This document shows positions 1-39,420 of a stretch of 39,420 nt of DNA, one piece after another. The DNA lies in the IMG/VR virus record IMGVR_UViG_3300025594_000002; one strand, written 5' to 3'. The notes beneath the pieces are model-generated. The model ran no database searches, was not told the DNA's origin, and saw only the letters and a list, made by a program, of their open reading frames with translations. The position numbers were made by a program, and so were the translations under genes. This stretch comes from a virus. Positions within the stretch are counted from its first letter, which is position 1; every line of letters starts with the position of its first letter.

Positions 1-129
1 CTCCTTTAGTGGCTGTAACTTAAAGAAGGTAACTTTCCTACATTGCTCGCCAAGTTCATCTAATTCAGCCTTAGCTGTTACCAATTCTGCTTTAAGTTGC
101 TCGATTTCTTTAATATCTGCTAGTGAGCG
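1..129. repeat. Terminal direct repeat, copy A (identical to 39292..39420). Either the assembly overlap of a circular or permuted genome, or true terminal redundancy.
   Basis: Read directly: bases 1-129 (ctcctttagtggctgtaactt...ctgctagtgagcg) recur exactly as the last 129 bases of the window. Confidence 0.9.
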
Positions 130-288
130 AGTGTGGCAAAGGTCAGCATGTGCATAATCCCAATCTCTCCCACCATCGTAATCTTCCATAGTCATATATC
201 CGCTTTTGCCGGCTGACAAGTAAAACCCATTATTATCAACATGAGTCGCACCCTCTGGCGCATTGTCTATAATCTCTTGGTTAGTCAT
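1..288 (-). CDS. NAPEGATHV-family small early protein, 5' part. The gene runs off the left edge and is completed by 39280..39420, about 99 aa in total.
   Basis: ATG at 288..286 overlaps the TAA of the upstream gene. Hand translation: MTNQEIIDNAPEGATHVDNNGFYLSAGKSGYMTMEDYDGGRDWDYAHADLCHTRSLADIKEIEQLKAELVTAKAELDELGEQCRKVTFFKLQPLKE, open to base 1. It is a paralog of 1077..1328. Confidence 0.55.
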   Translation of the reverse strand, partial: MTNQEIIDNAPEGATHVDNNGFYLSAGKSGYMTMEDYDGGRDWDYAHADLCHTRSLADIKEIEQLKAELVTAKAELDELGEQCRKVTFFKLQPLKE

Positions 289-752
289 TAGCCTTGCTCC
301 TTTAGTTTTTTGGCATAAATAAGCGCCCTATTTTTAGCTACGGATTCATCGTACTGGCTCCCCAAAGCCCACTTACAAGCAGACACATACCCCTTAACCA
401 CGCCTTTCGCCTGTTGCTCAAGGTCGCGTATTGCTAAATCTTCATATGAAACACACCTTGTTTGCGTGACTGTTTCATATGCTGTATTAAGCTCAGCATT
501 CTTCTTTCTAAGCTCGACAAGTTCCTTAATGTCTGTGAGTGAATGGTAATCTTCCATGCTTTCGCTATCTACCTTCTGAAATGAATAAATGTAATCTTGA
601 CTAGTGGGGCAAAAGTGATGCCACTCAAAAAGACCACCTTTCAATCTCCAGTACTCAAAATCTCCGCTAGATTCAATTTCAACATGCGTCGCACCCTCTG
701 GCGCATTCTCAAGTATCAATTCATTTGCTGTTTTGCTGTCGTGTTTAGTCAT
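288..752 (-). CDS. Hypothetical early protein. N-terminal NAPEGATHV module plus a C-terminal RDLxQQAKG module.
   Basis: 154-aa ORF. ENAPEGATHV is shared with 1..288 and 1077..1328. IRDLEQQAKG is shared with 38724..39014. It ends in KEQG at a junction motif. Confidence 0.65.
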   Translation of the reverse strand: MTKHDSKTANELILENAPEGATHVEIESSGDFEYWRLKGGLFEWHHFCPTSQDYIYSFQKVDSESMEDYHSLTDIKELVELRKKNAELNTAYETVTQTRCVSYEDLAIRDLEQQAKGVVKGYVSACKWALGSQYDESVAKNRALIYAKKLKEQG

Positions 753-1080
753 TGGGTAACTCCTCTGTCATTTCTGCATCTAGCAGTTTTTTTGCCTCTT
801 CCAGTCTATCTATAGCAATATCAATAGACTTGGTATTATCAAAAACTAAATATACTTTTTCGTGATTCGGCATATTGTTTACTACTTTAGCGTGGTCTCC
901 TTTATACACCCCAAAAGGTTTATCCATTAATTTATCTCGGACAATCTGTATTCCTGCTAAGTCACCATCCCACCCGACAGTTGATATTCTAGTTTTACCA
1001 TCTCCAAAACTAGCAACTTTCGATTCGACTTTATCTATTCCAAATATTTGATTGCTTATTCCGTATTCAATTTTCATCAC
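745..1080 (-). CDS. Hypothetical early protein.
   Basis: 111-aa ORF in the same-strand gene chain. Its start overlaps the upstream stop by 4 nt (1077-1080) and its 3' end overlaps the next gene's start by 8 nt (745-752). Confidence 0.6.
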   Translation of the reverse strand: MMKIEYGISNQIFGIDKVESKVASFGDGKTRISTVGWDGDLAGIQIVRDKLMDKPFGVYKGDHAKVVNNMPNHEKVYLVFDNTKSIDIAIDRLEEAKKLLDAEMTEELPND

Positions 1081-1328
1081 TTCACCTTCCTGTTATCAAT
1101 CCACGCGTCAAGTTCTTTTGTTCTAGCTAATAGCATTTCTTCAAGCTCTGCAATGCGCTTAATGTCTGCTAGTGAGCGGGTAGTAGTAGCTCTTGTTGCC
1201 TCAAATCTTTTAGTTTCATCATGCCATAAATTCCATCGCCAACGTGCATTAAAAGCAAAGTAATCATTTTCTTCATCAACATGCGTCGCACCCTCTGGCG
1301 CATTGTCTATAATCTCTTGGTTAGTCAT
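1077..1328 (-). CDS. NAPEGATHV-family small early protein (paralog).
   Basis: 83 aa, MTNQEIIDNAPEGATHV...RSLADIKRIAELEE. The first ~65 nt, including the upstream junction, are near-identical to 243-305. Confidence 0.65.
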   Translation of the reverse strand: MTNQEIIDNAPEGATHVDEENDYFAFNARWRWNLWHDETKRFEATRATTTRSLADIKRIAELEEMLLARTKELDAWIDNRKVK

Positions 1329-1552
1329 TCGCCTTGCTCCTTTAGTTCCTCGTAACGGTTAACCCAGTATTTAGCATCAGCAGCAGCATCAGCAGCAGCA
1401 TCAGCAGCATAATAAGCAGCATTAGCAGCATAATCAGCAGCATAAGCAGCATTAGCAGCATCAGCAGCATCACGATTATCGTCTAACTCTTGCTGCGTAA
1501 CTGACGTAGGGTCAACTAACCACTTCTTTACTAGTTCTATGTGTTTATTCAT
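1325..1552 (-). CDS. Ala/Asp/Asn/Tyr low-complexity repeat protein, paralog 1 (75 aa).
   Basis: Conserved ends MNKHIELVKKWL..SVTQQELDDNR and YWVNRYEELKEQGE flank an (AAx)n array encoded only by GCT and xAT codons. Junction motif at both ends. Confidence 0.7.
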   Translation of the reverse strand: MNKHIELVKKWLVDPTSVTQQELDDNRDAADAANAAYAADYAANAAYYAADAAADAAADAKYWVNRYEELKEQGE

Positions 1553-1563
1553 TCGCCTTGCTC

Positions 1564-1773
1564 CTACGCTTGATTTTTACTATGACGATAACGCAAGCCT
1601 ACTAAGCTTATTTCACGTCTATGTAGCATTGACGCTATTGCACCGGCGGGACGGTCAAAGTGTTTCGCTAGGTCTTTTAATCTATAACCAAGGTATAAAA
1701 CCAAGTCGATTAACTCAACTATGCGCTTATCCCACCATTCTTTTTTTGTTTGTATGCTTGGGTTTGGATTCAT
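1564..1773 (-). CDS. Small putative HTH DNA-binding protein.
   Basis: 69-aa ORF. The segment YRLKDLAKHFDRPAGAIASMLHRR resembles a sigma-70 region-4 / LuxR-type helix-turn-helix. 4-nt overlap with the upstream gene. Confidence 0.5.
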   Translation of the reverse strand: MNPNPSIQTKKEWWDKRIVELIDLVLYLGYRLKDLAKHFDRPAGAIASMLHRREISLVGLRYRHSKNQA

Positions 1774-2177: not shown

Positions 2178-3515
2178 TTAGCCGAATCTATCTTTTGTTT
2201 CAGCTTCTACATATTCAGTATCGACACATTGAAAGCGTTGATAGTCTAATTGGTTTTCTAGCATCTTCACGCCAGTTTCGCCAAACCTTACCTTGTTGAA
2301 TATCTCGCAAGTTAGCATTCCTTTGTGCGGTTTAAGGTCTTCACTCGGTGTGTGTAAGAACATTAAAACGTCTGAATCATTCTCAATGGCTCCTGTTTCG
2401 CGTAAGTCTGATGCGTTTGGAAAGCCTGTTGAATTTTTCTTTAACTGAGCTATTACAATTACAGATGAGCCTAATTCCATCGCTAGATCTTTTAACCTGT
2501 TGCTTGCGTTGGTTAATTCTGAGTACATGTTGTTGCTGTCGATTTTTAAGCGCTGTATGTAATCAACTACAATTAAATCTAGTTCGTTATACTTCGCTTT
2601 TAGCTGCCTAGCTTTGCGCTCAATATCGCTTATAGATAATCCTGAACTATCATCAATGTGAAGCTTTGATTTTTTAACCACTTCAATTGCATTTGCTGCA
2701 CATGACCATTGATAATCGTTTAGCTCTGCTGATTTAATTGCAGAAAATGGTACATTACCAATATCACTGACTAGTTTCATCATTCCTTTTTGCCGCTTCA
2801 TTTCCATACTGAAGAACAATGAACGCCTGCCCATTTTTGTATAGTGCGCGAGTATATTCATAGCTCTGGTAGTTTTACCGCTTCCAGACCTGCCAGCAAT
2901 CGCCAGATAGTCACCAGTATGTAAGCCACCTGTTGCATCATCTAGGTGCTTATCTCCAGTACACAGCCCACTCATGCCTCCGTCTGTTTTACCTAACCTT
3001 TCCAATTCATCAATAAACGCACTACAAAGCTCTGGAGCGTCTGCAATTTCATTCTCACCCCTTTCTACGAATAAAGGCTCGATATCGCTGTACAGTTTCT
3101 CACGGGTTTTTTTATAGCCACTCTTAGCATAAACCTGATCTAATGCTTTGTGGCAGGCTTCAATTATCTTTCTTCCGTTCCATTCCATGACAACCATTTC
3201 GCAGTAAGTCATAACGTTTGCAGATGTTGGTGTATTTCTGGCTAGTTCGCCAATGTATGCCATGCCTCCCGCATCGTCTAAAGTACCAAGTGATTCTAAT
3301 AAGTCACAAATTGTTAATAGGTCGATAGGCTTTTTGTTTTCTAGCAGGATCTTAATTGCTTTGTATATTTCACGATGAGATAAAACATAAAAGTGATCGT
3401 GATTTATAATTTCAACAACTGAGTAATGACAATCTGAATTTATAATCATCGAGCCTAAAACGGATTGTTCAGCAGCTAGTGAATGTGGTGGTATTTTTAA
3501 TATTTGATTATTCAT
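2178..3515 (-). CDS. dnaB: Replicative DNA helicase, DnaB family.
   Basis: 445 aa. N-terminal DnaB-type sequence PPHSLAAEQSVLGSMI, Walker A GRSGSGKTT, and C-terminal RecA-like domain motifs (VVDYIQRL, SVIVIAQL). Confidence 0.92.
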   Translation of the reverse strand: MNNQILKIPPHSLAAEQSVLGSMIINSDCHYSVVEIINHDHFYVLSHREIYKAIKILLENKKPIDLLTICDLLESLGTLDDAGGMAYIGELARNTPTSANVMTYCEMVVMEWNGRKIIEACHKALDQVYAKSGYKKTREKLYSDIEPLFVERGENEIADAPELCSAFIDELERLGKTDGGMSGLCTGDKHLDDATGGLHTGDYLAIAGRSGSGKTTRAMNILAHYTKMGRRSLFFSMEMKRQKGMMKLVSDIGNVPFSAIKSAELNDYQWSCAANAIEVVKKSKLHIDDSSGLSISDIERKARQLKAKYNELDLIVVDYIQRLKIDSNNMYSELTNASNRLKDLAMELGSSVIVIAQLKKNSTGFPNASDLRETGAIENDSDVLMFLHTPSEDLKPHKGMLTCEIFNKVRFGETGVKMLENQLDYQRFQCVDTEYVEAETKDRFG

Positions 3516-4209
3516 CGCGCCACTGAGCCTCCGTTAAGAACCTAGCCAACTGCATGTTTTCAAATCTTCCACGATCAGCATTGTGGGCTTCTTTGCAAAA
3601 TGCAGCCATTGCGTTTACTTCAGCTTTGAATTTTTCAGTGGTATGAGTCATGAAGTATTTTTTATTAAATAAAGGCTTCCAACGTTTTTCAAGGTTGAAG
3701 GATTTTGGAGATGTGTCGACTTTACCTATGGCCTTTTTAACTGGCTTCCATGATGTAGACCAAAACCATTCAAAAGCTTTTTCAACCACGTTAGATTGGT
3801 CGTTAGACCTATCATTAGTATCTGACTGGTTCAATGACTGATTAACTGACTGATTATGCACCCCGTTTTCGGGATCATCCAAAGTACCGTTTTCGGGATC
3901 GTCTATCATACCGTTTTCGGGATCATCCCAATTTCGGATTGACTGAATAATTATTTTTAAAACTCTAACTCTTTGAGACTGCCCAACACGCTTGCCAGTG
4001 TCTTGAACTAGCCCAAAATTAATAAGTTTTGTGATGTTTAATTGAACTGTTTTTTTGTTTAATGCTGTGTCTTTAGATATTCGCTCTATTGATGGGTAAC
4101 ATCTATGCCCATCGTTATCAGCTCGATCAGCTAATGATAAAAGCGTAAGTTTTAAAGTAGCTGGTTTGAGATTCATATCCCATACAGCTTGGGTGCAGTC
4201 TCTACTCAT
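3508..4209 (-). CDS. Replication initiator / HTH replication protein (phage O or DnaD-like role).
   Basis: 233 aa. N-terminal winged-HTH-like region (LKLTLLSLADRADNDGHRCYPSIERISKDTALNKKTV). Lies immediately upstream of dnaB and overlaps it. Contains the iteron array. Confidence 0.6.
   Translation of the reverse strand: MSRDCTQAVWDMNLKPATLKLTLLSLADRADNDGHRCYPSIERISKDTALNKKTVQLNITKLINFGLVQDTGKRVGQSQRVRVLKIIIQSIRNWDDPENGMIDDPENGTLDDPENGVHNQSVNQSLNQSDTNDRSNDQSNVVEKAFEWFWSTSWKPVKKAIGKVDTSPKSFNLEKRWKPLFNKKYFMTHTTEKFKAEVNAMAAFCKEAHNADRGRFENMQLARFLTEAQWRDE
3863..3934. repeat. Three 24-bp tandem iterons (core CCGTTTTCGGGATC, each with a GATC), followed by an AT-rich tract. Candidate replication origin inside the initiator gene.
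   Basis: Cores start at 3863, 3887 and 3911, an exact 24-bp period. They encode DDPENG x3. The AT-rich tract aataattatttttaaaac follows at about 3946-3963. Confidence 0.55.
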
Positions 4210-5072: not shown

Positions 5073-5370
5073 AATTTAAGTTCTTCCAAGCTTGTCTTGT
5101 TATATCTTCAGGAATGCCCAAGGCCAACGCAACAGCGGCATGACCAATCCACGCTTTTCTGTTCATATAATAATCAGTTAATGCGTTTTCGCAACTAACA
5201 GGCCATTCATTTACAACTTTAGTCATATAGAAACCGTATAACTTGTGGCTTCCAGTGAAATCAATAGCGATTAATGTTGATCTCTTTCTGTCAGAGACAG
5301 TGCCCCACATATTGTGCGGCACCTCCTCCCATTTATAATATGGGTGCCAAACCCTTTTAAACTTCCTCAT
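4957..5370 (-). CDS. Conserved phage protein, N-terminal module (see the frameshift finding).
   Basis: 137-aa ORF translationally coupled to the ParB-like gene by a 14-nt overlap. The frame ends 12 codons after an A5 run. Confidence 0.6.
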   Translation of the reverse strand: MRKFKRVWHPYYKWEEVPHNMWGTVSDRKRSTLIAIDFTGSHKLYGFYMTKVVNEWPVSCENALTDYYMNRKAWIGHAAVALALGIPEDITRQAWKNLNYEQQYLANKEAIRAISSWENMYIESKKLRASMGGSLLS

Positions 5371-5884
5371 CGTTCTCTATCGACCACGATTCAGAGAAGT
5401 CTTTATTTTGAAATAGTGATGCCAAACCGGTTATCTGCTTAAGCCTTAGCAGCTCATCTGCACTCATCCCTATGTGCTGGCATATCCATCTATCGCCTTT
5501 ACCCATCTCGACAAGCTCAGAAACTATCGTGCTCATCAGCTCTATGTTGTGCGATCCTCTAGCCCTGTTATGCCTAATCGTTGATGCCATCCTATCGTGC
5601 ATTTCTTTGTCAAGAACAACACAAGGCAACACACCGCCTTCACGCTCTAAAATTCGCTTTGAGTTTTTAAGCGTTAAGAACCTATGGAATCCATCTATAA
5701 CAACATATTTATCATTCTCCTTGTCATAAACAGTTACTACTGGCTGTGTATACCCATCCTCCCAAATTGAAGTTTCTAGCAATGCCATTTCTGGAGGCGC
5801 AACGCTGTTTGGGTTGTAATCGTTCGCTGTTACTTTTTCAATTGGCACTGGTATAACGTTATACACTGGTGATTTATAAGTCAT
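5357..5884 (-). CDS. ibrB: ParB/Srx N-terminal-domain protein (IbrB-like).
   Basis: ParB-type motif VVIDGFHRF and TIRHNRARG. I chose the start at ATG 5884 (MTYKSP...) because GGGAG lies 8 nt upstream and it directly follows the stop of the previous gene. The ORF track extends it to 5941. Confidence 0.75.
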   Translation of the reverse strand: MTYKSPVYNVIPVPIEKVTANDYNPNSVAPPEMALLETSIWEDGYTQPVVTVYDKENDKYVVIDGFHRFLTLKNSKRILEREGGVLPCVVLDKEMHDRMASTIRHNRARGSHNIELMSTIVSELVEMGKGDRWICQHIGMSADELLRLKQITGLASLFQNKDFSESWSIENDEEV

Positions 5885-5885
5885 A

Positions 5886-6275
5886 TTAATTACTCCCATC
5901 AGTTGAGTATGAACCATCTTCTCTGTGCGTCTCTCTTGCAATTAGCGGAGGATTCCAAGAACATAGTAGCGTGGTTTCTTCCATAGCTTGAAAATAATGC
6001 GGATCGTTTTTATCAAGAATATAGGTGTCGCCTTCTCTTATCCAATGCTCATGCCCAGTCTTTGCGCATGTCAGTATTGCCAAGCCCTTTATGCAATAGC
6101 ATGCCTCAAGGTGGTTTTTATAATGCTGAAACACTTTGCCAGCTTCTGGCATTATTGTTGTTCTTGTTAGTCCAAAGCCCATGCCATCCTTTTTCAATAT
6201 AATTCGCTTGCTTACACCAGCGTGAAAATCAACTACTCTATCTTTCTCTAAATTAGCATGATTAACTATTTTCAT
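5886..6275 (-). CDS. Ectoine-synthase-like cupin (EctC family).
   Basis: 129 aa. HYKNHLEACYCIKG, GDTYILDKNDPH and ETHREDGSY line up with the EctC signature HYKHHFEAVYCIEG...GDIYILDQHDEH...EVHREDGSY, as I recall the Halomonas EctC. Confidence 0.75.
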   Translation of the reverse strand: MKIVNHANLEKDRVVDFHAGVSKRIILKKDGMGFGLTRTTIMPEAGKVFQHYKNHLEACYCIKGLAILTCAKTGHEHWIREGDTYILDKNDPHYFQAMEETTLLCSWNPPLIARETHREDGSYSTDGSN

Positions 6276-7597
6276 TTTTTATCTCCAAGTACTTTGTATT
6301 TTTCCATTATGGCGCGTTGCCTTTTTGCTTGTGTGTGAGTTGGCTGTAATCCCATATACTTGCACGTGTGGTCATTCTTTAAGATTGTTATTGCAAATCT
6401 TTTCCAGCTTGTAACGTTGCTGTTGTTTTTCTTCATCCCGTCAACATGGTCAGGCGGAACAGGTATTCTAACTCTTAGCAGGCTTTTAGACCCGTGAGGG
6501 GTTAGCCCGTTTATGTTAAACCTGACCCCATTTTTTGAAAGTTCACTTATTGTTTCATTATCTAGGCCGCGCCCCACTCTTGCCCAATATTTTATAGATT
6601 GAACGAAGCGAATTTTAAAATTTTCAGCAGACTCTTTAGGTAATGTCTCAAGAAGAAACTTAACAAAAGACTTCCACGTATGACCTTTAGGTAGGCTTAC
6701 ACTCTTGTAATCTAACTGTTTTCCATATGTTGCTACAAAATTTGCACCTTGAACCCTAGCGCAAAGTCTAGCCCATATATGCGGGTTTATAACTCGGTAC
6801 AAACTTAAACTTCCTTTTGCTTCACTCATAAACGGTGATGCAACCCTCATTGAATGAAGTGGTATTCCTGCTTTGTAAAAAATGTCGTAAAGCTCATTGT
6901 AGTTCCATTCAAACTTGTCATTAGCTATCCAAACATCCTCTGTTTTCCAATCGTAAACAGGATAAACATTGTAAGTGTGTTCGGTATTCTTTTTTGTCCA
7001 CGGCTTACCGTCGACCATTTGTTTTCTTTCGTTCATTATCGCTCTGAAGCGGTTTAGGCTTTCCTGGGTTCTAATCCCTATCATATTCGCGCAAGACTTG
7101 CCTTGACTGTACCATTCAGCGAACATATCCCAAAAATGGTCATACTGCATATCTTCTTCAAACAAATCACCAAATGGATGGTTATCTATATTCACAATAT
7201 AATCATCTTCAAACATCGGCCTTATCCATCTATGCTTGTCTCTTTCGCCCCAACACTGCCAATCCATGTGATACGCGGAAACTGTGCAAGGTAATGTTAT
7301 TGGTAGACAGCACCAATATATATCTAAAACGTCGCGGTTATCTCTCATCATTTCGTGCATAAACTTGATCGATTCATCATAGTTAGCTTCGTTATCCATT
7401 ATCTGAATGCCAAGCTTTCTCCCGTTTATTACGTCTGGATTTTCTTTCATGTACTTAATCGCTAAATTAAGCATTACACCAGAATCCTTTCCGCCAGAAA
7501 AAGAAAGATAAACCCTTTCAAAATTCCTCCAAGTAAAGTCGATACGCTCATAGGCAGCATCAAAAACATTTTTATTTTTATCCCACACCCTTTTCAT
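6272..7597 (-). CDS. ibrA: PAPS-reductase-family PP-loop protein with a long C-terminal extension (IbrA-like, DUF3440-type).
   Basis: 441 aa. PP-loop SFSGGKDS near the N-terminus. The C-terminal region with SWKRFAITILKNDHTCKYMGL is typical of IbrA-like proteins. Strong RBS AGAGGTGA. Confidence 0.8.
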   Translation of the reverse strand: MKRVWDKNKNVFDAAYERIDFTWRNFERVYLSFSGGKDSGVMLNLAIKYMKENPDVINGRKLGIQIMDNEANYDESIKFMHEMMRDNRDVLDIYWCCLPITLPCTVSAYHMDWQCWGERDKHRWIRPMFEDDYIVNIDNHPFGDLFEEDMQYDHFWDMFAEWYSQGKSCANMIGIRTQESLNRFRAIMNERKQMVDGKPWTKKNTEHTYNVYPVYDWKTEDVWIANDKFEWNYNELYDIFYKAGIPLHSMRVASPFMSEAKGSLSLYRVINPHIWARLCARVQGANFVATYGKQLDYKSVSLPKGHTWKSFVKFLLETLPKESAENFKIRFVQSIKYWARVGRGLDNETISELSKNGVRFNINGLTPHGSKSLLRVRIPVPPDHVDGMKKNNSNVTSWKRFAITILKNDHTCKYMGLQPTHTQAKRQRAIMEKYKVLGDKK

Positions 7598-11420: not shown

Positions 11421-11756
11421 ATGAATATAAATGATTTAACAATTGGGCAGGCGAAAGAATTATCTGGATTATTTAACTTAAATAGCAATAATCATGAGTC
11501 TCCGTTTAAAGTCGGGAAGGCTTACATGTTTAGAACGGTTACACATATACATGTTGGTATTGTAGAAGAAGTCCACGGGGATCTTGTTAGCACTTCAAGC
11601 GGTTCATGGGTTGCTGACACTGGGCTTTTTACTGAATTTCTTGAAACTGGCAAGGTTTCCGAAGTTGAGATGTTTTCTGGACGTTCTGGTGTAAATATAG
11701 GGGCGTTAGTTGATTGGGCGGAATGGGAAAACGAACTGTACAGGGAAAGAAAATGA
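11421..11756 (+). CDS. Hypothetical protein.
   Basis: 111-aa ORF with RBS AGAGG. Confidence 0.65.
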   Translation: MNINDLTIGQAKELSGLFNLNSNNHESPFKVGKAYMFRTVTHIHVGIVEEVHGDLVSTSSGSWVADTGLFTEFLETGKVSEVEMFSGRSGVNIGALVDWAEWENELYRERK

Positions 11757-11947
11757 ACGCAGCAATAATGTCTTGGTCTGGGTCTAAGTCTAGGTCTGGG
11801 TCTTGGTCTGGGTCTAAGTCTAGGTCTGGGTCTTGGTCTAGGTCTGGGTCTAGGTCCTGGTCTAGGTCTAGGTCTATGTCTAGGTCTAGGTCTATGTCTA
11901 GGTCTAGGTCTTGGTCTAGGTCTATGTCTGGGTCTAGGTCTGGGTAA
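11753..11947 (+). CDS. Ser-X dipeptide repeat protein (64 aa, extremely basic). Coding status uncertain.
   Basis: The ATG overlaps the upstream TGA (ATGA). MNAAIM is followed by 29 S-X dipeptides, X = W, G, K, R or M. Confidence 0.4.
   Translation: MNAAIMSWSGSKSRSGSWSGSKSRSGSWSRSGSRSWSRSRSMSRSRSMSRSRSWSRSMSGSRSG
11771..11944. repeat. 29 tandem hexanucleotide units (TCT-NGG / TCT-AAG / TCT-ATG).
   Basis: Read directly: tcttgg tctggg tctaag tctagg and so on. 28 of the 29 Ser codons are TCT. Confidence 0.9.
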
Positions 11948-33688: not shown

Positions 33689-35305
33689 TTATCCTCTAAA
33701 ATTAACTGTTGTTGAATCTGGTTTAAATGTTGAGCCGTATATGTCATCAGCAAATCCGACACCAACAACACCGAATGATTGCCCGGCGGCAACCGTTACG
33801 GTTGTATTATCACTAGTATAACTGATTGTTCCAAGTGTTGCATTAACGTCGATTAAGCCAGCTAGTGATACAACAGCATCATTACTTGAATACGATATCG
33901 TACCTAGTGTAGCCGGTACGCTAACCACGCCTTGCAAACTGATTACTGTGTCATTGCTCGAATACGTAATTGTACCCAATGTCGATGACACAACGATAGC
34001 TCCACCTATTGAAACAATCGGACTTACAGATGTATAAGTAATTGCACCTAGTGTGGCTAGTGCATCTACTGAGCCTGTTACGTCAACCGTTACATTGCTA
34101 CTTGAATAATCAATCGTTCCGAGGGTCGTTATTACGTCTACTGAACCTGTAATGCCAACCGTCGTGTTATTGCTTGTGTAATCTATCGCGCCTAATGTGA
34201 CTATTGCGTCAACACTTCCACTAATATCAACCGTTGCATTGTTTGAGGTGTATGCAATTGTTCCCAGTGTGGCGGCTACATCAATTGAGCCTGTGATTGA
34301 TACAGTCGTGCTTTGACCTGTATAGGATATTGTTCCCAGTGTTGCGGGTACTGTTATCGCACCCCCCGCATCCTCCGCAATCCACCAAGAGCCTGTTGCG
34401 TTAATATTATCAGTTTCTATTTTGGCTTGATTTTCATAAATGGGAGTATTTGAAAATGCTATGCTACTAACTGTGATGGTTGTACCTTCAAACAAAGATA
34501 CAAAGCTAGACCATGTTTGCCCTACTGTCCCTCCGTTATAGCTAAAATACTCAACACCATCCCTGTAAATCTTAACTACGCCATCTTGATTGGTTAAGTG
34601 ATAAACAGCCATACCAGCTGTTGTACTAAACGCTGTGGTATAACCGTTGGAAATAGTTCTGTCTCCGTTATCATACCTAGATTTAGCTTGGTCGTTTGAG
34701 TCCTTGCGCTGGAAGTAAGCATTACCAGAATCTATTATTTGACTATTGTTAGCATGAGAAGAAAAGTCAGCTATAAAACTTAAAGTATAACTTTTTGTGC
34801 TTGCAGGTATTAAACTATCTGCATCTGAAGAATACAAATTACTTGATGCTGGAAGTGTTACGCCTTTACCTGTTGTGGTATCTACCCCCTGTGTTACAGA
34901 GCCTTGGTATATCCAGCTAGTATTCCCTACACTGTCTATCGGATTTCCAGTGGTTTCTTCAAGCTCTAAGTTGAATACCTTATCTTGGTGAACTGCCTCG
35001 CTTCCATACGGATCGGATGCTAACGGCTGCGAGGCTGTGGCATTATTGCCCCATACCCCTACTATTACGTCCACTGCTACATTGATTAGCCTTGTTTTAA
35101 CTAAGCTATCATTTATTACATGTATAGGAAGTTGGTTTGTACCATCATGTAGCCTCAAATCGCCTAAGTCAGCTCTTAAACTACCCGTGAACGGGGCTAG
35201 TGCTTGCGAGTTAATTTCCAGTATTGTAGCGCCAGAAGTAGCTCCACCTAAGCTTGGTACTTTTAGTGTGCCTAGTAGAGTAAAGCCCTCAGTTGATAGG
35301 CTCAT
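33689..35305 (-). CDS. Large repeat protein: N-terminal DUF2341/LamG-like region plus eight 24-aa tandem repeats.
   Basis: 538 aa. TLG(T/A)I.Y(T/S)S motifs at residues 322, 346, 370, 394, 418, 442, 466 and 490. Confidence 0.7.
   Translation of the reverse strand: MSLSTEGFTLLGTLKVPSLGGATSGATILEINSQALAPFTGSLRADLGDLRLHDGTNQLPIHVINDSLVKTRLINVAVDVIVGVWGNNATASQPLASDPYGSEAVHQDKVFNLELEETTGNPIDSVGNTSWIYQGSVTQGVDTTTGKGVTLPASSNLYSSDADSLIPASTKSYTLSFIADFSSHANNSQIIDSGNAYFQRKDSNDQAKSRYDNGDRTISNGYTTAFSTTAGMAVYHLTNQDGVVKIYRDGVEYFSYNGGTVGQTWSSFVSLFEGTTITVSSIAFSNTPIYENQAKIETDNINATGSWWIAEDAGGAITVPATLGTISYTGQSTTVSITGSIDVAATLGTIAYTSNNATVDISGSVDAIVTLGAIDYTSNNTTVGITGSVDVITTLGTIDYSSSNVTVDVTGSVDALATLGAITYTSVSPIVSIGGAIVVSSTLGTITYSSNDTVISLQGVVSVPATLGTISYSSNDAVVSLAGLIDVNATLGTISYTSDNTTVTVAAGQSFGVVGVGFADDIYGSTFKPDSTTVNFRG
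33782..34360. repeat. Eight tandem 72-bp coding repeats.
   Basis: Exact 24-residue periodicity counted in the translated protein. The copies are diverged. Confidence 0.85.
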
Positions 35306-35987: not shown

Positions 35988-36016
35988 ATTATACCATTAG
36001 CGAAGCCTCATTTCAC
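35988..36016 (-). promoter_or_regulatory. Extended -10 promoter (GTGAAA-17 nt-TGGTATAAT) ahead of the structural-like genes.
   Basis: The minus strand reads tggtataat directly after the dut stop. Confidence 0.3.
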
Positions 36017-36299
36017 TAGATAGAATGCCAGCATGGCCACGGCTAGTTCTGTCCAAATCATCAACGATGTTTATTTCCATATCTGCGTAGTGTTTTTGTA
36101 CGATTAACTGAGCCACTTTATCACCTGTTTTTATTTCAACCGGATCAAGCCCAGTGTTTAATAATGACACATGTATTTCTCCGCGATAATCACTGTCTAC
36201 AACACCCGCTAATATATCAATGCCCATTTTAGACGCTAGCTTGCTGCGAGGCCATATCAAGCCAACATACCCACGAGGCATTGAAGCCAAGCTTAACAA
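35997..36299 (-). pseudogene. dut: dUTPase lacking the N-terminal ~65 aa (motif I absent, motif V degenerate).
   Basis: Motifs II-IV are present (WPRSKL, GVVDSDYRGEI, GDKVAQLI). The C-terminus reads RGHAGILSS instead of RG..GFGS.G. There is an in-frame TAA 13 codons upstream of the TTG start. Confidence 0.7.
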
Positions 36300-36700
36300 G
36301 TTTTGTTTTGGCTTTTCCTGTGTCTGTACGCCATGTTTTTAAGCGTTCCATATTTGATATCTAGTAACCTGCCAATGTCAGCTAATGATTTTGATTTATC
36401 GCCATTATCAAGAGCTGTGATCATATCAAGCGCCTGTTGATTCTTCTTTGTTCTGATTGACTTGCGCTCGGGCTTTATAGATTCATACCTTACTTTCCAC
36501 TTGCTTTTTGCTTTAATCTCTCGCTGTAATCTCGCTTCAAGCTGTTCAACCTGCTTCTTTAGCGCTTTTATTTCGCCTTTATCTTCCAGGTAATCGTCAA
36601 GCCCTATACCTGGGTAATGATCGCCTTCATTGCCATTTTGCATAATAGCTTCAATTCTTGTTTCATCACTGGGCCAGTCTTTAGTTTGTGGGTATTTCAT
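36293..36700 (-). CDS. Hypothetical protein with a C-terminal HTH.
   Basis: 135 aa. Coiled middle, then SLADIGRLLDIKYGTLKNMAYRHR, which is HTH-like. It occupies the space where the dut 5' third should be. Confidence 0.55.
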   Translation of the reverse strand: MKYPQTKDWPSDETRIEAIMQNGNEGDHYPGIGLDDYLEDKGEIKALKKQVEQLEARLQREIKAKSKWKVRYESIKPERKSIRTKKNQQALDMITALDNGDKSKSLADIGRLLDIKYGTLKNMAYRHRKSQNKTC

Positions 36701-37137
36701 TTAGACCCCAAAAAGCCGAAGTATGCAGCACTGCGAGTGTCTTCATTGCTTCTGCCTGTCCAGCCTGTTACACGTTCAAACTCTGTCTTGCTTGCTTGGG
36801 TTTTCCATTTGCTAGATACTTTATGCAGCACAACTTTAATTTTAAAGTGTTCACATATACGCTCTATTTCTTGTTGTGCGTGTTTGCATTTACCAACAGA
36901 TTCTGAGTATTTAGCTTTTACCTTCGCATTAGGTAAGCTTTTCCAGCCAAAAGAGCTGCACCGATTACCGTTTAAATTCTCAAGGTGAACAGACCCTATA
37001 CTTTGACGCCACTCTTCACAGAATAGATAGAATTGAATAGTTGTGAAGTTGTGTAATGCTCCTAGTTTGCCGTTTTCATATAGTGCTATTCCGTTTTTAA
37101 CTGAGTCCGGATCAATTCCTATTATTAGTTTATTCAA
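36697..37137 (-). CDS. RuvC-like Holliday junction resolvase.
   Basis: 146 aa. IIGIDPDS at the N-terminus and NEDTRSAA near the C-terminus. TTG start with GGAGGA upstream. Confidence 0.6.
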   Translation of the reverse strand: MNKLIIGIDPDSVKNGIALYENGKLGALHNFTTIQFYLFCEEWRQSIGSVHLENLNGNRCSSFGWKSLPNAKVKAKYSESVGKCKHAQQEIERICEHFKIKVVLHKVSSKWKTQASKTEFERVTGWTGRSNEDTRSAAYFGFLGSK

Positions 37138-37307
37138 ACTATATCCTCCTGCTCACAGATTGCCCTAGCCATATCTATAAACTCCTGCTCTAGCTCGTAT
37201 TTTCCATAACCAAAATCAATACCGATATGGGCGACAGCTTTTATTATTGATAGCATTCTTGTTCTTTCTGGATCGATATTTCCTTGGTCTATTATTACTT
37301 TATCCAT
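37134..37307 (-). CDS. Hypothetical small protein (57 aa).
   Basis: Hand-translated as MDKVIIDQGNIDPERTRMLSIIKAVAHIGIDFGYGKYELEQEFIDMARAICEQEDIV. RBS AGGGGGTG. Confidence 0.5.
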   Translation of the reverse strand: MDKVIIDQGNIDPERTRMLSIIKAVAHIGIDFGYGKYELEQEFIDMARAICEQEDIV

Positions 37308-37308
37308 G

Positions 37309-37704
37309 TCACCCCCTAACTATTGCGTTGATTATGTCTTGGCTGAATGGTATTTCATAACCGTCTGATTTCATTGTTGTAATCATGTCATCAAATACAA
37401 AATCATCACCAGCAAAGTGTTCTCTAAAGGCTGCTGGTCTTAGTGTTTTGTTGTACTTATGATCGCACATAACATTATGCAATTCATAAGGTATTGGCAT
37501 TATTGCCAGCTCTCCAACCTTGACAGACACAAGATTAATTTTTCTTTTAGCTTGAGCGCCTAGAATATGGTCTAACTCAAATCTTGATGTGTCTGAGTAC
37601 TCACCAAACCAAACATCAAGCCAATCTGTGTTATTCGCAAAATCTGCCACTATCCCGCGCCATTTCAATTCTAATGCTGTTGGGTTCTTTCCTTTGCTAA
37701 TCAT
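37309..37704 (-). CDS. Hypothetical protein with a weak His-Me/HNH-like pattern.
   Basis: 131 aa. The only hints are ELDHILG ... YELHNVMCDHKYNK. Confidence 0.5.
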   Translation of the reverse strand: MISKGKNPTALELKWRGIVADFANNTDWLDVWFGEYSDTSRFELDHILGAQAKRKINLVSVKVGELAIMPIPYELHNVMCDHKYNKTLRPAAFREHFAGDDFVFDDMITTMKSDGYEIPFSQDIINAIVRG

Positions 37705-37715
37705 GCCTATACACC

Positions 37716-38129
37716 TTATTGTTCTTTGTTAGGCCATTCTAAAGATATTCCTAACTTGGTTGCTGTGTGACGGTTTAACGTCTCGTATATTTCTGGATAA
37801 TCTTTAGTGCTAACCCTTGCCGTTGACGTTTCTTTTTTTAAAGCCTCTTGAATTGGCCTCCACATGAAATCTTTAACTCTTTCCATTGTCCAATTGCATT
37901 CAGTTTCTTTCCTGTTAACTATGATCACAAATCCAAATCCAGCGTCATTCATAGCCTCAGCTAGTAGGCCGCAATAGACATGCAATGCTTTATTTTGCAA
38001 TCCTGTCCTTTGCTTATCGTAGTTAGGTGTTATCTGTAGCCACTTACGATCATTAAACTCTTTAGTTAAAAAATCCTTAGCCGCTTGCAGCGTAGCTTCT
38101 GAGTTAATTGTAAATGGCTGTTGTTTCAT
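37716..38129 (-). CDS. NinB/Orf-like recombination protein (tentative).
   Basis: 137 aa. KQRTGLQNKALHVYCGLLAEAM resembles lambda NinB RNRSLDQNRKLWACLGDV. Confidence 0.45.
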   Translation of the reverse strand: MKQQPFTINSEATLQAAKDFLTKEFNDRKWLQITPNYDKQRTGLQNKALHVYCGLLAEAMNDAGFGFVIIVNRKETECNWTMERVKDFMWRPIQEALKKETSTARVSTKDYPEIYETLNRHTATKLGISLEWPNKEQ

Positions 38130-38530
38130 TCACCTTGCTCCTTTAGTTCCTCGTAACGTTTAACCCAGTAAGCAGCATAAGCAGCAGCATAAGCAGCAGC
38201 ATAAGCAGCATTAGCAGCATCAGCAGCAGCATAATAAGCAACATCAGCAGCAGCATCAGCAGCAGCATCAGCAGCAGCACGAGCAGCAGCACTAGTAGCA
38301 GCATCAGCAGCAGCATTATAAGCAGCATTAGCAGCACGAGCAGCAGCATCAGCAGCATCAGCAGCATAATAAGCAGCATTAGCAGCATTAGCAGCAGCAT
38401 AATAAGCAGCATCAGCAGCAGCATCAGCAGCATAAGCAGCAGCAACATTACGGTTATCGTCTAATTCTTGTTGTGTAACTGAATCATTATCAGCTAACCA
38501 CTTCTTTACTAGTTCAATATGTTTGTTCAT
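38126..38530 (-). CDS. Ala/Asp/Asn/Tyr low-complexity repeat protein, paralog 2 (134 aa).
   Basis: Same conserved ends as 1325..1552 and 39011..39283, with the longest central array. Confidence 0.7.
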   Translation of the reverse strand: MNKHIELVKKWLADNDSVTQQELDDNRNVAAAYAADAAADAAYYAAANAANAAYYAADAADAAARAANAAYNAAADAATSAAARAAADAAADAAADVAYYAAADAANAAYAAAYAAAYAAYWVKRYEELKEQGE

Positions 38531-38727
38531 TCGCCTTGCTCCTTTTTTATAACGCCTGTCTCATTTAGTAATAACGTTTTCCATCCCATACCACTTTGTA
38601 CAGATACTTGTAGTCGCCGTTCATCGGATAAGTGGTGCTTATTTATAAAGCAGTAAAACACGCCAATCTCCCCTGCGTATTTTCCTCTGAGGATAACAAC
38701 TTTGTCACCTTCTTTGTATTTAGTCAT
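38527..38727 (-). CDS. Small KOW/SH3-like protein.
   Basis: 66 aa. GDKVVILRGKYAGEIG resembles a KOW motif. Ends in KEQGE. Confidence 0.5.
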   Translation of the reverse strand: MTKYKEGDKVVILRGKYAGEIGVFYCFINKHHLSDERRLQVSVQSGMGWKTLLLNETGVIKKEQGE

Positions 38728-39014
38728 TCGCCTTGCTCTTTAGCTTGGTTGAGTAGGTGCATGATATAGTTTTCAGAGCAATTTATATCCGTTTGGTTTA
38801 TGATTTCGGTAACACCTTGAATGTGTTTGATATAATCACTAATACCCTTAGCTTGTTGGGTTAGGTCACGAGCAACACGCTCTTCCTCAAGCTCTGCAAT
38901 GCGTTCACTAAGTGCGCTCACTGTTTTTTCGACCTTATAAGCTGAGTAGACTTCTTGATACCCGTCAAAGTCCTCGATTGACTGCGGCGCTCCTAATCTT
39001 GGTATGTCTATCAT
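38724..39014 (-). CDS. Hypothetical early protein with an RDLxQQAKG module.
   Basis: 96 aa. ARDLTQQAKGI is shared with 288..752. Ends in KEQGE. Confidence 0.6.
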   Translation of the reverse strand: MIDIPRLGAPQSIEDFDGYQEVYSAYKVEKTVSALSERIAELEEERVARDLTQQAKGISDYIKHIQGVTEIINQTDINCSENYIMHLLNQAKEQGE

Positions 39015-39283
39015 TCGCCTTGCTCCTTTAATTCCTCGTAACGGTTAACCCAGTATTTAGCATCAGCAGCAGCATCAGCAGCAGCATCAGCAGCAGCATC
39101 AGCAGCATAATAAGCAGCATAAGCAGCATAATCAGCAGCATTAGCAGCATTAGCAGCACGAGCAGTACGAGCAGCAGCATCAGCAGCAGCATCAGCAGCA
39201 GCACGGTTATCTTCTAACTCTTGTTGTGTAACTGATTCAGAGTCAGCTAGCCATTTTTTTACTAGTTCTATGTGTTTGTTCAT
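39011..39283 (-). CDS. Ala/Asp/Asn/Tyr low-complexity repeat protein, paralog 3 (90 aa).
   Basis: Same conserved ends as the two other paralogs. Confidence 0.7.
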   Translation of the reverse strand: MNKHIELVKKWLADSESVTQQELEDNRAAADAAADAAARTARAANAANAADYAAYAAYYAADAAADAAADAAADAKYWVNRYEELKEQGE

Positions 39284-39420
39284 TCGCCTTGCTCCTTTAG
39301 TGGCTGTAACTTAAAGAAGGTAACTTTCCTACATTGCTCGCCAAGTTCATCTAATTCAGCCTTAGCTGTTACCAATTCTGCTTTAAGTTGCTCGATTTCT
39401 TTAATATCTGCTAGTGAGCG
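39280..39420 (-). CDS. 3' part of the junction-spanning NAPEGATHV-family gene (same gene as 1..288).
   Basis: The frame is open from the right edge. It ends ...FFKLQPLKEQGE with TGA at 39282..39280, overlapping the next ATG. Confidence 0.55.
   Translation of the reverse strand, partial: RSLADIKEIEQLKAELVTAKAELDELGEQCRKVTFFKLQPLKEQGE
39292..39420. repeat. Terminal direct repeat, copy B (identical to 1..129).
   Basis: Read directly. Confidence 0.9.

Follow-up and report, generated by a model that had tools for sequence, protein, structure and literature searches.

T7 gp5.9, a small coiled-coil protein with an isoelectric point (pI) of 4.0, is a mimic of DNA, and lambda Gam forms a small dimer that is acidic and helical (PMC9836394). 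The alanine-rich helices of fish type I antifreeze proteins come from genes in which codon homogeneity goes together with unequal recombination (PMC3855684). Short regulatory boundary motifs, the PeSLs of T4-type hyperplastic regions, are recombination points at which small accessory phage genes are shuffled (PMC2839356, PMC4122927). Here we describe three paralogous genes, A, B and C, in the IMG/VR virus record IMGVR_UViG_3300025594_000002, a stretch of 39,420 nucleotides (nt) that is referred to as a whole as the window. Their products consist of a central alanine-rich array of variable length between conserved ends, and they belong to a large phage family that has features of each of the systems above.

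The array proteins resemble T7 gp5.9 and lambda Gam in being small, acidic (pI about 4), alpha-helical (here by prediction) early phage proteins encoded among DNA-metabolism genes. However, they have no sequence or fold match, their density of Asp and Glu is much lower, and their array is repetitive and variable in length. With the fish antifreeze genes they share alanine-rich amphipathic helices and a strong bias towards one Ala codon, but the phage family shows no homology to them, lacks the 11-residue Thr repeat and is rich in Tyr and Asp; it also has conserved non-repetitive termini, carries the bias in all array codons and consists of early genes. As in the in-frame contingency-type repeats of bacteria and phages, a short-unit tandem repeat lies within a coding region and shows indels in multiples of three and length polymorphism. 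Unlike those repeats, the array is imperfect, mixes 9- and 12-nt units and occurs in multi-copy cassettes, and it alters helix length and surface rather than acting as an on/off switch of expression. Short conserved gene-boundary motifs serve as cassette-shuffling points, as in the PeSL cassettes, but the motif here is an 18-nt ribosome-binding-site and ATGA translational-coupling junction that encodes the last residues of the upstream protein, and not a promoter/stem-loop unit. The synthetic Tyr/Ala/Asp/Ser binding libraries made by Fellouse and colleagues in 2004 with the KMT codon are said to show that four amino acids are enough for specific binding in vitro. By analogy only, the natural arrays share with them a restricted alphabet in T-ending codons (GCT, GAT, TAT, TCT), but they are Ala-dominated and predicted to be helical. 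In-frame repeat instability, single-codon alanine-rich helices and boundary-motif cassette shuffling are each known elsewhere; what appears to be new is their combination with fixed synonymous third positions and a protein alphabet apparently set by the codons.

The alanine-array genes

Genes A, B and C are minus-strand open reading frames (ORFs) and were found, with near-identical ends and arrays of different length, as an original prediction made from the sequence alone had described them (Table 1). The common N-terminal end is MNKHIELVKKWL.D..SVTQQEL.DNR and the common C-terminal end is YWV[NK]RYEELKEQGE. Array A consists of 21 GCT (Ala), 6 GAT (Asp), 4 TAT (Tyr), 2 AAT (Asn) and 1 AAA (Lys) codons; array B of 61 GCT, 11 TAT, 9 GAT, 6 AAT, 2 GTT, 2 CGT, 1 ACT and 1 AGT; and array C of 32 GCT, 7 GAT, 4 TAT, 2 AAT, 2 CGT, 1 ACT and 1 AAA. 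Ala thus makes up 62-66% of each array. The few Arg, Thr, Ser and Val residues that had been reported in the two longer arrays are present, and Lys ends the arrays of A and C. Tandem Repeats Finder detected imperfect repeats over every window array, with periods of 9, 12, 21 and 30 nt and 67-85% matches. The central array is an imperfect (GCT GCT [GCT] NAT)n microsatellite.

The start codon of each gene lies in an ATGA stop/start overlap, with the ribosome-binding site AAGGAG (AGGAG for A) 8 nt upstream. Over the 41 codons of the flanks, the paralogs show 8-9 synonymous-only differences versus 4 amino-acid differences, which argues that the flanks are under ordinary protein-level constraint and that the copies are not recent. 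A recent whole-gene duplication was therefore rejected as the source of the codon uniformity described below: about 20% of flank codons differ synonymously, and the arrays are T-ending except for the terminal AAA of A and C. On sequence evidence, A, B and C are evidently translated and belong to the early region of a circular, roughly 39.3-kb phage genome.

A search of a clustered protein collection gave 414 matches, all unnamed, of 55-123 amino acids (aa); they share the termini, and their variable middles abound in Ala, Tyr and Asp. When 1.84 billion representatives of 50%-identity clusters were searched with a profile, 846 proteins were recovered at E<=1e-3, 414 of them at E<=1e-10. The family is carried by 46 IMG/VR loci and by further metagenome contigs, often in 3-5 tandem copies; its members are marine, some with Tara Oceans labels. 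The family is large and uncharacterised, and all its known occurrences to date are in uncultured environmental viruses, often in tandem clusters. One member (P0022, 123 aa) is a natural head-to-tail fusion of two family members; in another the array is down to about 9 residues, and in rare cases the middle is an ordinary sequence without repeats.

The view that no characterised family of this kind exists was upheld. No meaningful match to Pfam was obtained with 121 members; the alanine-zipper family PF11839 matched three of the 121 weakly (best E = 0.0096, below the curated threshold) and none of the window proteins. NCBIfam, a sequence and profile search of PDB, and Foldseek against PDB and BFVD yielded no match, and PHROGs gave only one weak match, to a family of unknown function. 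In GenBank phages, megablast with positions 36000..39420 and tblastn with the 75-aa paralog found nothing. Two motif-based scans, in which each of 185,579 bacterial and archaeal species was represented by one genome, produced only chance matches, in Nostocales. Homologues of a rare member without low-complexity sequence had no named match, and the longer 'fusion' members matched only DUF551, in one probable read-through. No known RNA family (Rfam) or tRNA was matched, and a text search of papers for the conserved motifs returned none.

Codon usage and RNA structure of the arrays

The original prediction, from a codon-by-codon translation of paralog A, had every Ala as GCT, interspersed with GAT, AAT and TAT. 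This pattern extends to all three arrays: GCT accounts for 114 of 114 array Ala codons, compared with 34% of the Ala codons in the 37 other genes of the window (p ~1e-53). The arrays likewise use a single codon each for Asp (GAT), Tyr (TAT), Asn (AAT) and Arg (CGT), and T occupies the third position of every array codon with the sole exception of the final AAA of A and C. The window background is 62% for GAT and 53% each for TAT and AAT, and Tyr is encoded by TAC in the flanks of these genes and always by TAT in their arrays.

The same signature was seen in 49 family genes outside the window, for which long ORFs served as background. In these, the arrays against background values were 90% against 35% for GCT among Ala codons, 93% against 58% for GAT (Asp), 95% against 51% for TAT (Tyr) and 96% against 49% for AAT (Asn). 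The other T-ending codons favoured in family arrays were GTT (87%), ACT (76%), TCT (72%), CGT (65%) and GGT (62%). Family-wide, T is at the third position of 84% of array codons versus 24% of codons in the flanks of the same genes. Translational optimisation was rejected as the cause, since the flanks use TAC, GAC and AAC freely, which makes selection on translation at the level of the gene unlikely. NAU is not known to be the preferred codon in highly expressed gamma-proteobacterial genes.

The amino acid composition follows the same pattern. Residues that have no T-ending codon (Glu, Gln, Lys, Trp and Met) make up about 4% of family arrays, and the ratio of Asp to Glu is 191:39 in arrays versus 100:241 in flanks. 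Across the family, the commonest non-Ala array residue is Tyr, at 15%; Asp accounts for about one array residue in ten and Thr for 3.6%. On established helix-propensity scales, Asp and Asn rank below Glu, Gln and Lys. This, with the depletion of residues lacking a T-ending codon, would mean that a codon-level constraint shapes array composition, and we infer that the nucleotide-level repeat structure of the arrays shapes the composition of the protein. Repeat turnover is one partial explanation of the codon signature: GAT is one mutational step from GCT, and AAT and TAT are each one step from GAT. The family is an unusually clean case in which synonymous sites are fixed and amino-acid-changing sites are variable, with an alphabet (Asp and not Glu, Asn and not Lys or Gln) that seems to be dictated by the codons.

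A second partial explanation is avoidance of self-complementarity. Array mRNA is predicted to be much less structured than synonymous recodings that follow the codon usage of the genome, with z = +4.9, +10.1 and +7.2 in arrays A, B and C, and none of 300 recodings was as unstructured as the real arrays. For paralog B, the predicted folding energies were -124 with all Ala codons as GCA, -155 with GCG and -59 with GCC, compared with -78 for the real sequence. Low self-complementarity holds family-wide, with a median z of +4.3 in arrays versus +0.4 in flanks. Replacement of Asp by Glu (GAA) in the arrays would add a predicted 11-16 kcal/mol of structure.

As a consequence of the T-ending array codons, the +1 frame of the window arrays (38143..38448, 39028..39204 and 1342..1473, minus strand) is open for up to 101 aa and contains only Leu, Met, Ile and Val. 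This open run is probably a by-product. A second codon-monotone low-complexity ORF lies elsewhere on the plus strand of the window (Table 1). It encodes MNAAIM followed by (Ser-x)29, in which Ser is TCT (with one TCC) and x is Trp, Gly, Lys, Arg or Met encoded by TGG, GGG, AAG, AGG or ATG. It is thus a basic repeat of the Ser/Arg type, written in a (TCTNGG)n hexamer array, and its start overlaps the upstream stop (ATGA).

Variation of array length among relatives

The array had been described as a cryptic trinucleotide repeat prone to in-frame expansion or contraction, and a comparison of array lengths among relatives had been suggested as a check. Such a comparison agrees with the description: the lengths differ in multiples of 3 nt. 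Around paralog A, contig L052 matches the window exactly for about 630 nt except for three kinds of change, namely an 18-nt in-frame indel and one or two substitutions in the array of A, and one single-nucleotide polymorphism (SNP) in the downstream gene. Contigs L029 and L030 share a family gene. Between its ribosome-binding site and its stop codon, the two copies differ only by a 42-nt in-frame indel and one SNP, both in the array. The array differences seen among otherwise near-identical genomes are in-frame indels together with one to two substitutions. Nine sets of proteins have identical termini but different arrays; one set includes a 78-aa ortholog of C whose array resembles the start of array C joined to the middle of array B, which suggests recombination between paralog arrays. 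A diversity-generating retroelement was considered and rejected: array lengths vary, no reverse-transcriptase domain was found in the 20 larger window ORFs scanned, and the GCT share of array codons, 50-65%, is unlike that of a random NNT mix.

Junction repeats and cassette exchange

An 18-nt junction, AAGGAGCAAGGCGAATGA, composed of a ribosome-binding site, a spacer and the ATGA stop/start overlap, occurs in 8 copies in the window with at most one mismatch, compared with 0.05 expected, and is present on both sides of each paralog (Table 1). It encodes the recurrent ..KEQGE C-termini of several unrelated proteins. The C-terminal end regarded in the original prediction as common to the paralogs is thus present in all three, but its KEQGE part is encoded by the gene-junction repeat and so need not be a protein motif.

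In five contigs, identity is 96% or more through the 69-aa gene upstream as far as the junction at 1549..1566; beyond it they carry different cassettes, each of which ends in the same junction. L052 lacks window positions 308..1324, which correspond to three genes between two junctions and include part of the NAPEGATH family described below. The family gene shared by L029 and L030 is surrounded on both sides, beyond the junctions, by unrelated DNA. These comparisons indicate that each gene is a discrete cassette that is swapped, gained and lost at the junctions. The argument that three copies in one genome imply selection is accordingly weak when taken alone: cassettes between 18-nt direct repeats can duplicate or be swapped by recombination.

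Predicted structure of the array proteins

Paralogs A and B were modelled with AlphaFold2 as monomers from a 121-sequence alignment, and the models were used for secondary structure and confidence only. For A (predicted local distance difference test, pLDDT, 91.8), the model has a helix at residues 3-13, a loop and a single helix at 20-72. For B (pLDDT 83.4), helices are placed at 2-13, 20-76 and 81-132, with a break at 77-80 (AATS), and the two long helices probably form a hairpin. The alanine helix that had been proposed for these proteins agrees with the models and with the spacing of non-Ala residues, which have a periodicity of 3.5-3.7 residues in the Fourier spectrum and no peak at 11. 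By helical moment, non-Ala residues fall on one helix face (z = 3.8, 5.0 and 2.8 for the window arrays versus shuffled arrays), and aromatic residues occupy the same face as the acidic and amide residues or an adjacent one. The product is thus predicted to be a small acidic protein (pI 4.29-4.47 and net charge -8 to -10 for the 75-134 aa paralogs) with a conserved N-terminal helix-loop, a long alanine-rich helix, or a pair of them in the longest paralog, and at the C-terminal end a conserved hydrophobic motif. The long helix is predicted to have one all-Ala face and one Tyr/Asp/Asn face.

Across the family, the distance from the N-terminal to the C-terminal motif takes continuous values between 33 and 111 residues. 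All Rayleigh tests on it were weak, and a helical-phase or heptad constraint was rejected. In one subfamily, a change of ELVKK to LLVMK in the N-terminal helix occurs together with a change of YEE to YFE in the C-terminal motif; as a single clade, this gives a weak hint that the two ends of the protein touch.

Possible function of the family

The family as a whole is best explained, in our view, by an acidic helix that associates with itself and whose target is a host protein involved in DNA handling or defence. We hold it tentatively, at a probability of roughly 0.4. The Ala face would mediate helix-helix self-association, as a dimer or a hairpin, and the variable Tyr/Asp/Asn face would be a fast-evolving binding surface. 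Early in infection, the protein may inhibit its host target stoichiometrically, as a decoy or a mimic, much like its closest functional analogues, T7 gp5.9 and lambda Gam, which are small, acidic and helical inhibitors, and several paralogs would provide a repertoire of binding surfaces. The functional analogy draws on the replication and recombination gene neighbours and on the pI of 4.3-4.5; the DNA-mimic or polyanionic helix suggested in the original prediction is only plausible. Several observations weigh against this explanation. No homology ties the family to any target, and no conserved partner gene emerged from a comparison of neighbours among family loci. With about 10% Asp in the arrays, the charge density is well below that of known DNA mimics. 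The lack of helical-phase quantisation argues against a rigid continuous interface from end to end. Recoding NAT to NAC slightly lowers predicted RNA structure, so that avoidance of such structure leaves the T ending of the Asp, Asn and Tyr codons unexplained, and the third-position-T signature could be a by-product of repeat turnover without function.

If function resided only in the N-terminal helix-loop and the C-terminal motif, the array would be an expandable spacer, a tolerated and selfishly expanding CTG-type microsatellite whose only role is to be a helix. The continuous range of array lengths without phase constraint, the lack of array conservation between proteins with identical termini, and the members with a very short array or a non-repetitive middle all fit this, as does the single-codon bias, which repeat turnover predicts (compare the type I antifreeze genes, PMC3855684). 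However, the placement of non-Ala residues on one face is far above that in shuffled arrays; Tyr, although two mutational steps from GCT, is the commonest non-Ala residue, while the one-step neighbours Gly, Pro and Ser are rare; and arrays are kept across several hundred diverged clusters. On balance we find this explanation rather doubtful. It is unlikely that the helix instead self-assembles as a scaffold or adaptor for the phage's own replication and recombination proteins. That the genes always lie in replication/recombination modules would suit such a role, and the coupled LLVMK and YFE changes hint at contact between the ends, but the same gene is found in unrelated genomic surroundings, no partner gene co-occurs consistently, and the family spans phages with different replication machinery.

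Selection could also act on the third-base T itself, to maintain an unstructured or protein-binding RNA tract or an all-hydrophobic Leu/Met/Ile peptide in the +1 frame. In favour of this are the family-wide prevalence of third-position T (84-100%), the depletion of residues without T-ending codons and the unusually unstructured array mRNA, and it can be read directly from the sequence that Asp/Asn/Tyr changes after an Ala codon are synonymous (Leu) in the +1 frame. Nevertheless, the flanks are clearly under frame-0 protein selection; in many homologues third-position T is only 0.56-0.8, so that Pro, Gln or Lys appears in the +1 frame; the ATGs of that frame lack a ribosome-binding site; there is no match in Rfam; and the +1 frame would be open in any alanine-rich tract, whatever its codons. 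We consider selection of this kind quite improbable. An alanine-rich ice-binding or cryoprotective protein for cold marine hosts is more improbable still, since the 11-residue periodicity is absent, the arrays are rich in Tyr and not in Thr, and the genes are early genes in replication modules whose products have no signal peptide. What recommends it is that the window arrays hold 62-66% Ala beside Asp, Asn and Thr and favour one Ala codon, a resemblance to the fish type I antifreeze proteins (PMC3855684), that the family is marine, and that the sole GenBank phage match in the window is between a 538-aa ORF (Table 1) and an Antarctic Paraglaciecola virus.

Returning to the self-associating acidic helix, a more far-reaching form of it, which we regard as speculative and unlikely, is that the arrays are a diversification system that works without a reverse transcriptase. 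T-ending codons would preserve slippage, avoid RNA structure and confine the alphabet to Ala, Tyr, Asp, Asn, Ser and Thr, similar to that of the synthetic binding libraries, and the cassettes, carried and exchanged by phages as a repertoire, would be rapidly re-tunable helical inhibitors of host defence or DNA-processing proteins. If true, nucleotide-level repeat mechanics would have been selected for evolvability and would dictate protein composition. Whatever their role, these genes encode a large group of early phage proteins that has so far gone unannotated, with about 850 clusters at 50% identity, and that joins hypermutable arrays, tandem paralogs and cassette exchange at translational-coupling junctions. 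Should they prove to be tunable inhibitors of host defence or DNA-repair proteins, they would add a new class to the counter-defence genes and provide a natural scaffold for helical binders; were the array a neutral spacer, the family would still be a useful model of repeat dynamics in viral genomes.

Genome organization and neighbouring genes

The first and last 129 nt of the window are identical (1..129 = 39292..39420). This makes the window a circular contig of about 39,291 bp, in which A, B and C lie within about 2.7 kb of one early-gene cluster. Early-region transcription is on the minus strand, from DnaB over the window ends, where a gene of about 99 aa spans the join, and the region continues to a NinB-like gene and a Holliday-junction resolvase (Table 1). 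In other phages, the neighbours of family genes include DNA polymerase A, a PD-(D/E)XK nuclease, an SNF2 helicase, Dam and dUTPase, and vary from phage to phage.

Table 1. Positions of the array genes, junction repeats and other features in the window
Feature	Position	Strand	Remarks
Paralog A, 75 aa	1325..1552	-	array 1370..1471, 34 codons
Paralog B, 134 aa	38126..38530	-	array 38171..38449, 93 codons
Paralog C, 90 aa	39011..39283	-	array 39056..39202, 49 codons
Junction repeat TAGGAGCAAGGCGAATGA, upstream of A	1549..1566	-	AGGAG here, AAGGAG in consensus; spacer; ATGA
Junction repeat, 3' end of A	1325..1342	-	encodes ..KEQGE*
Junction repeat, upstream of B	38527..38544	-	
Junction repeat, 3' end of B	38126..38143	-	1 mismatch
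Junction repeat, upstream of C	39280..39297	-	
Junction repeat, 3' end of C	39011..39028	-	
Junction repeat, between 96-aa and 66-aa cassettes	38724..38741	-	both cassettes between C and B
Junction repeat, end of 154-aa gene	285..302	-	also start of gene wrapping window ends
NAPEGATH family gene	1077..1328	-	
NAPEGATH family gene	288..752	-	
NAPEGATH family gene, wrapping window ends	287..1, continuing 39420..39280	-	about 99 aa; 39420 = position 129, the 129-nt overlap counted once
DnaB	2178..3515	-	
NinB-like gene	37716..38129		
Holliday-junction resolvase	36697..37137		
HTH_36 gene	3508..4209		24-nt repeat 3863..3928; 12-nt repeat 3823..3856
PAPS-reductase/DUF3440 protein	6272..7597	-	early region
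Protein with weak ParB_N match	5357..5941	-	early region
(Ser-x)29 ORF	11753..11947	+	
538-aa ORF	33689..35305		no Pfam match

The alanine-array genes alternate with those of a second small paralogous family (phrog_20106, function unknown), recognised by ..NAPEGATHV.. near the N-terminus. A conserved neighbour gene was sought and rejected, the sole recurrent neighbour being this unrelated NAPEGATH small-gene family, at 9 loci.

Elsewhere in the early region, a PAPS-reductase/DUF3440 protein is encoded near a protein with a weak, sub-threshold match to ParB_N (E = 7.7e-4), a pair that we take to be possibly of the IbrA/IbrB type. The HTH_36 gene adjoins DnaB and probably encodes a replication initiator. 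Within it lie a 24-nt tandem repeat (2.8 copies) and a 12-nt tandem repeat, which may be the iterons of a replication origin.

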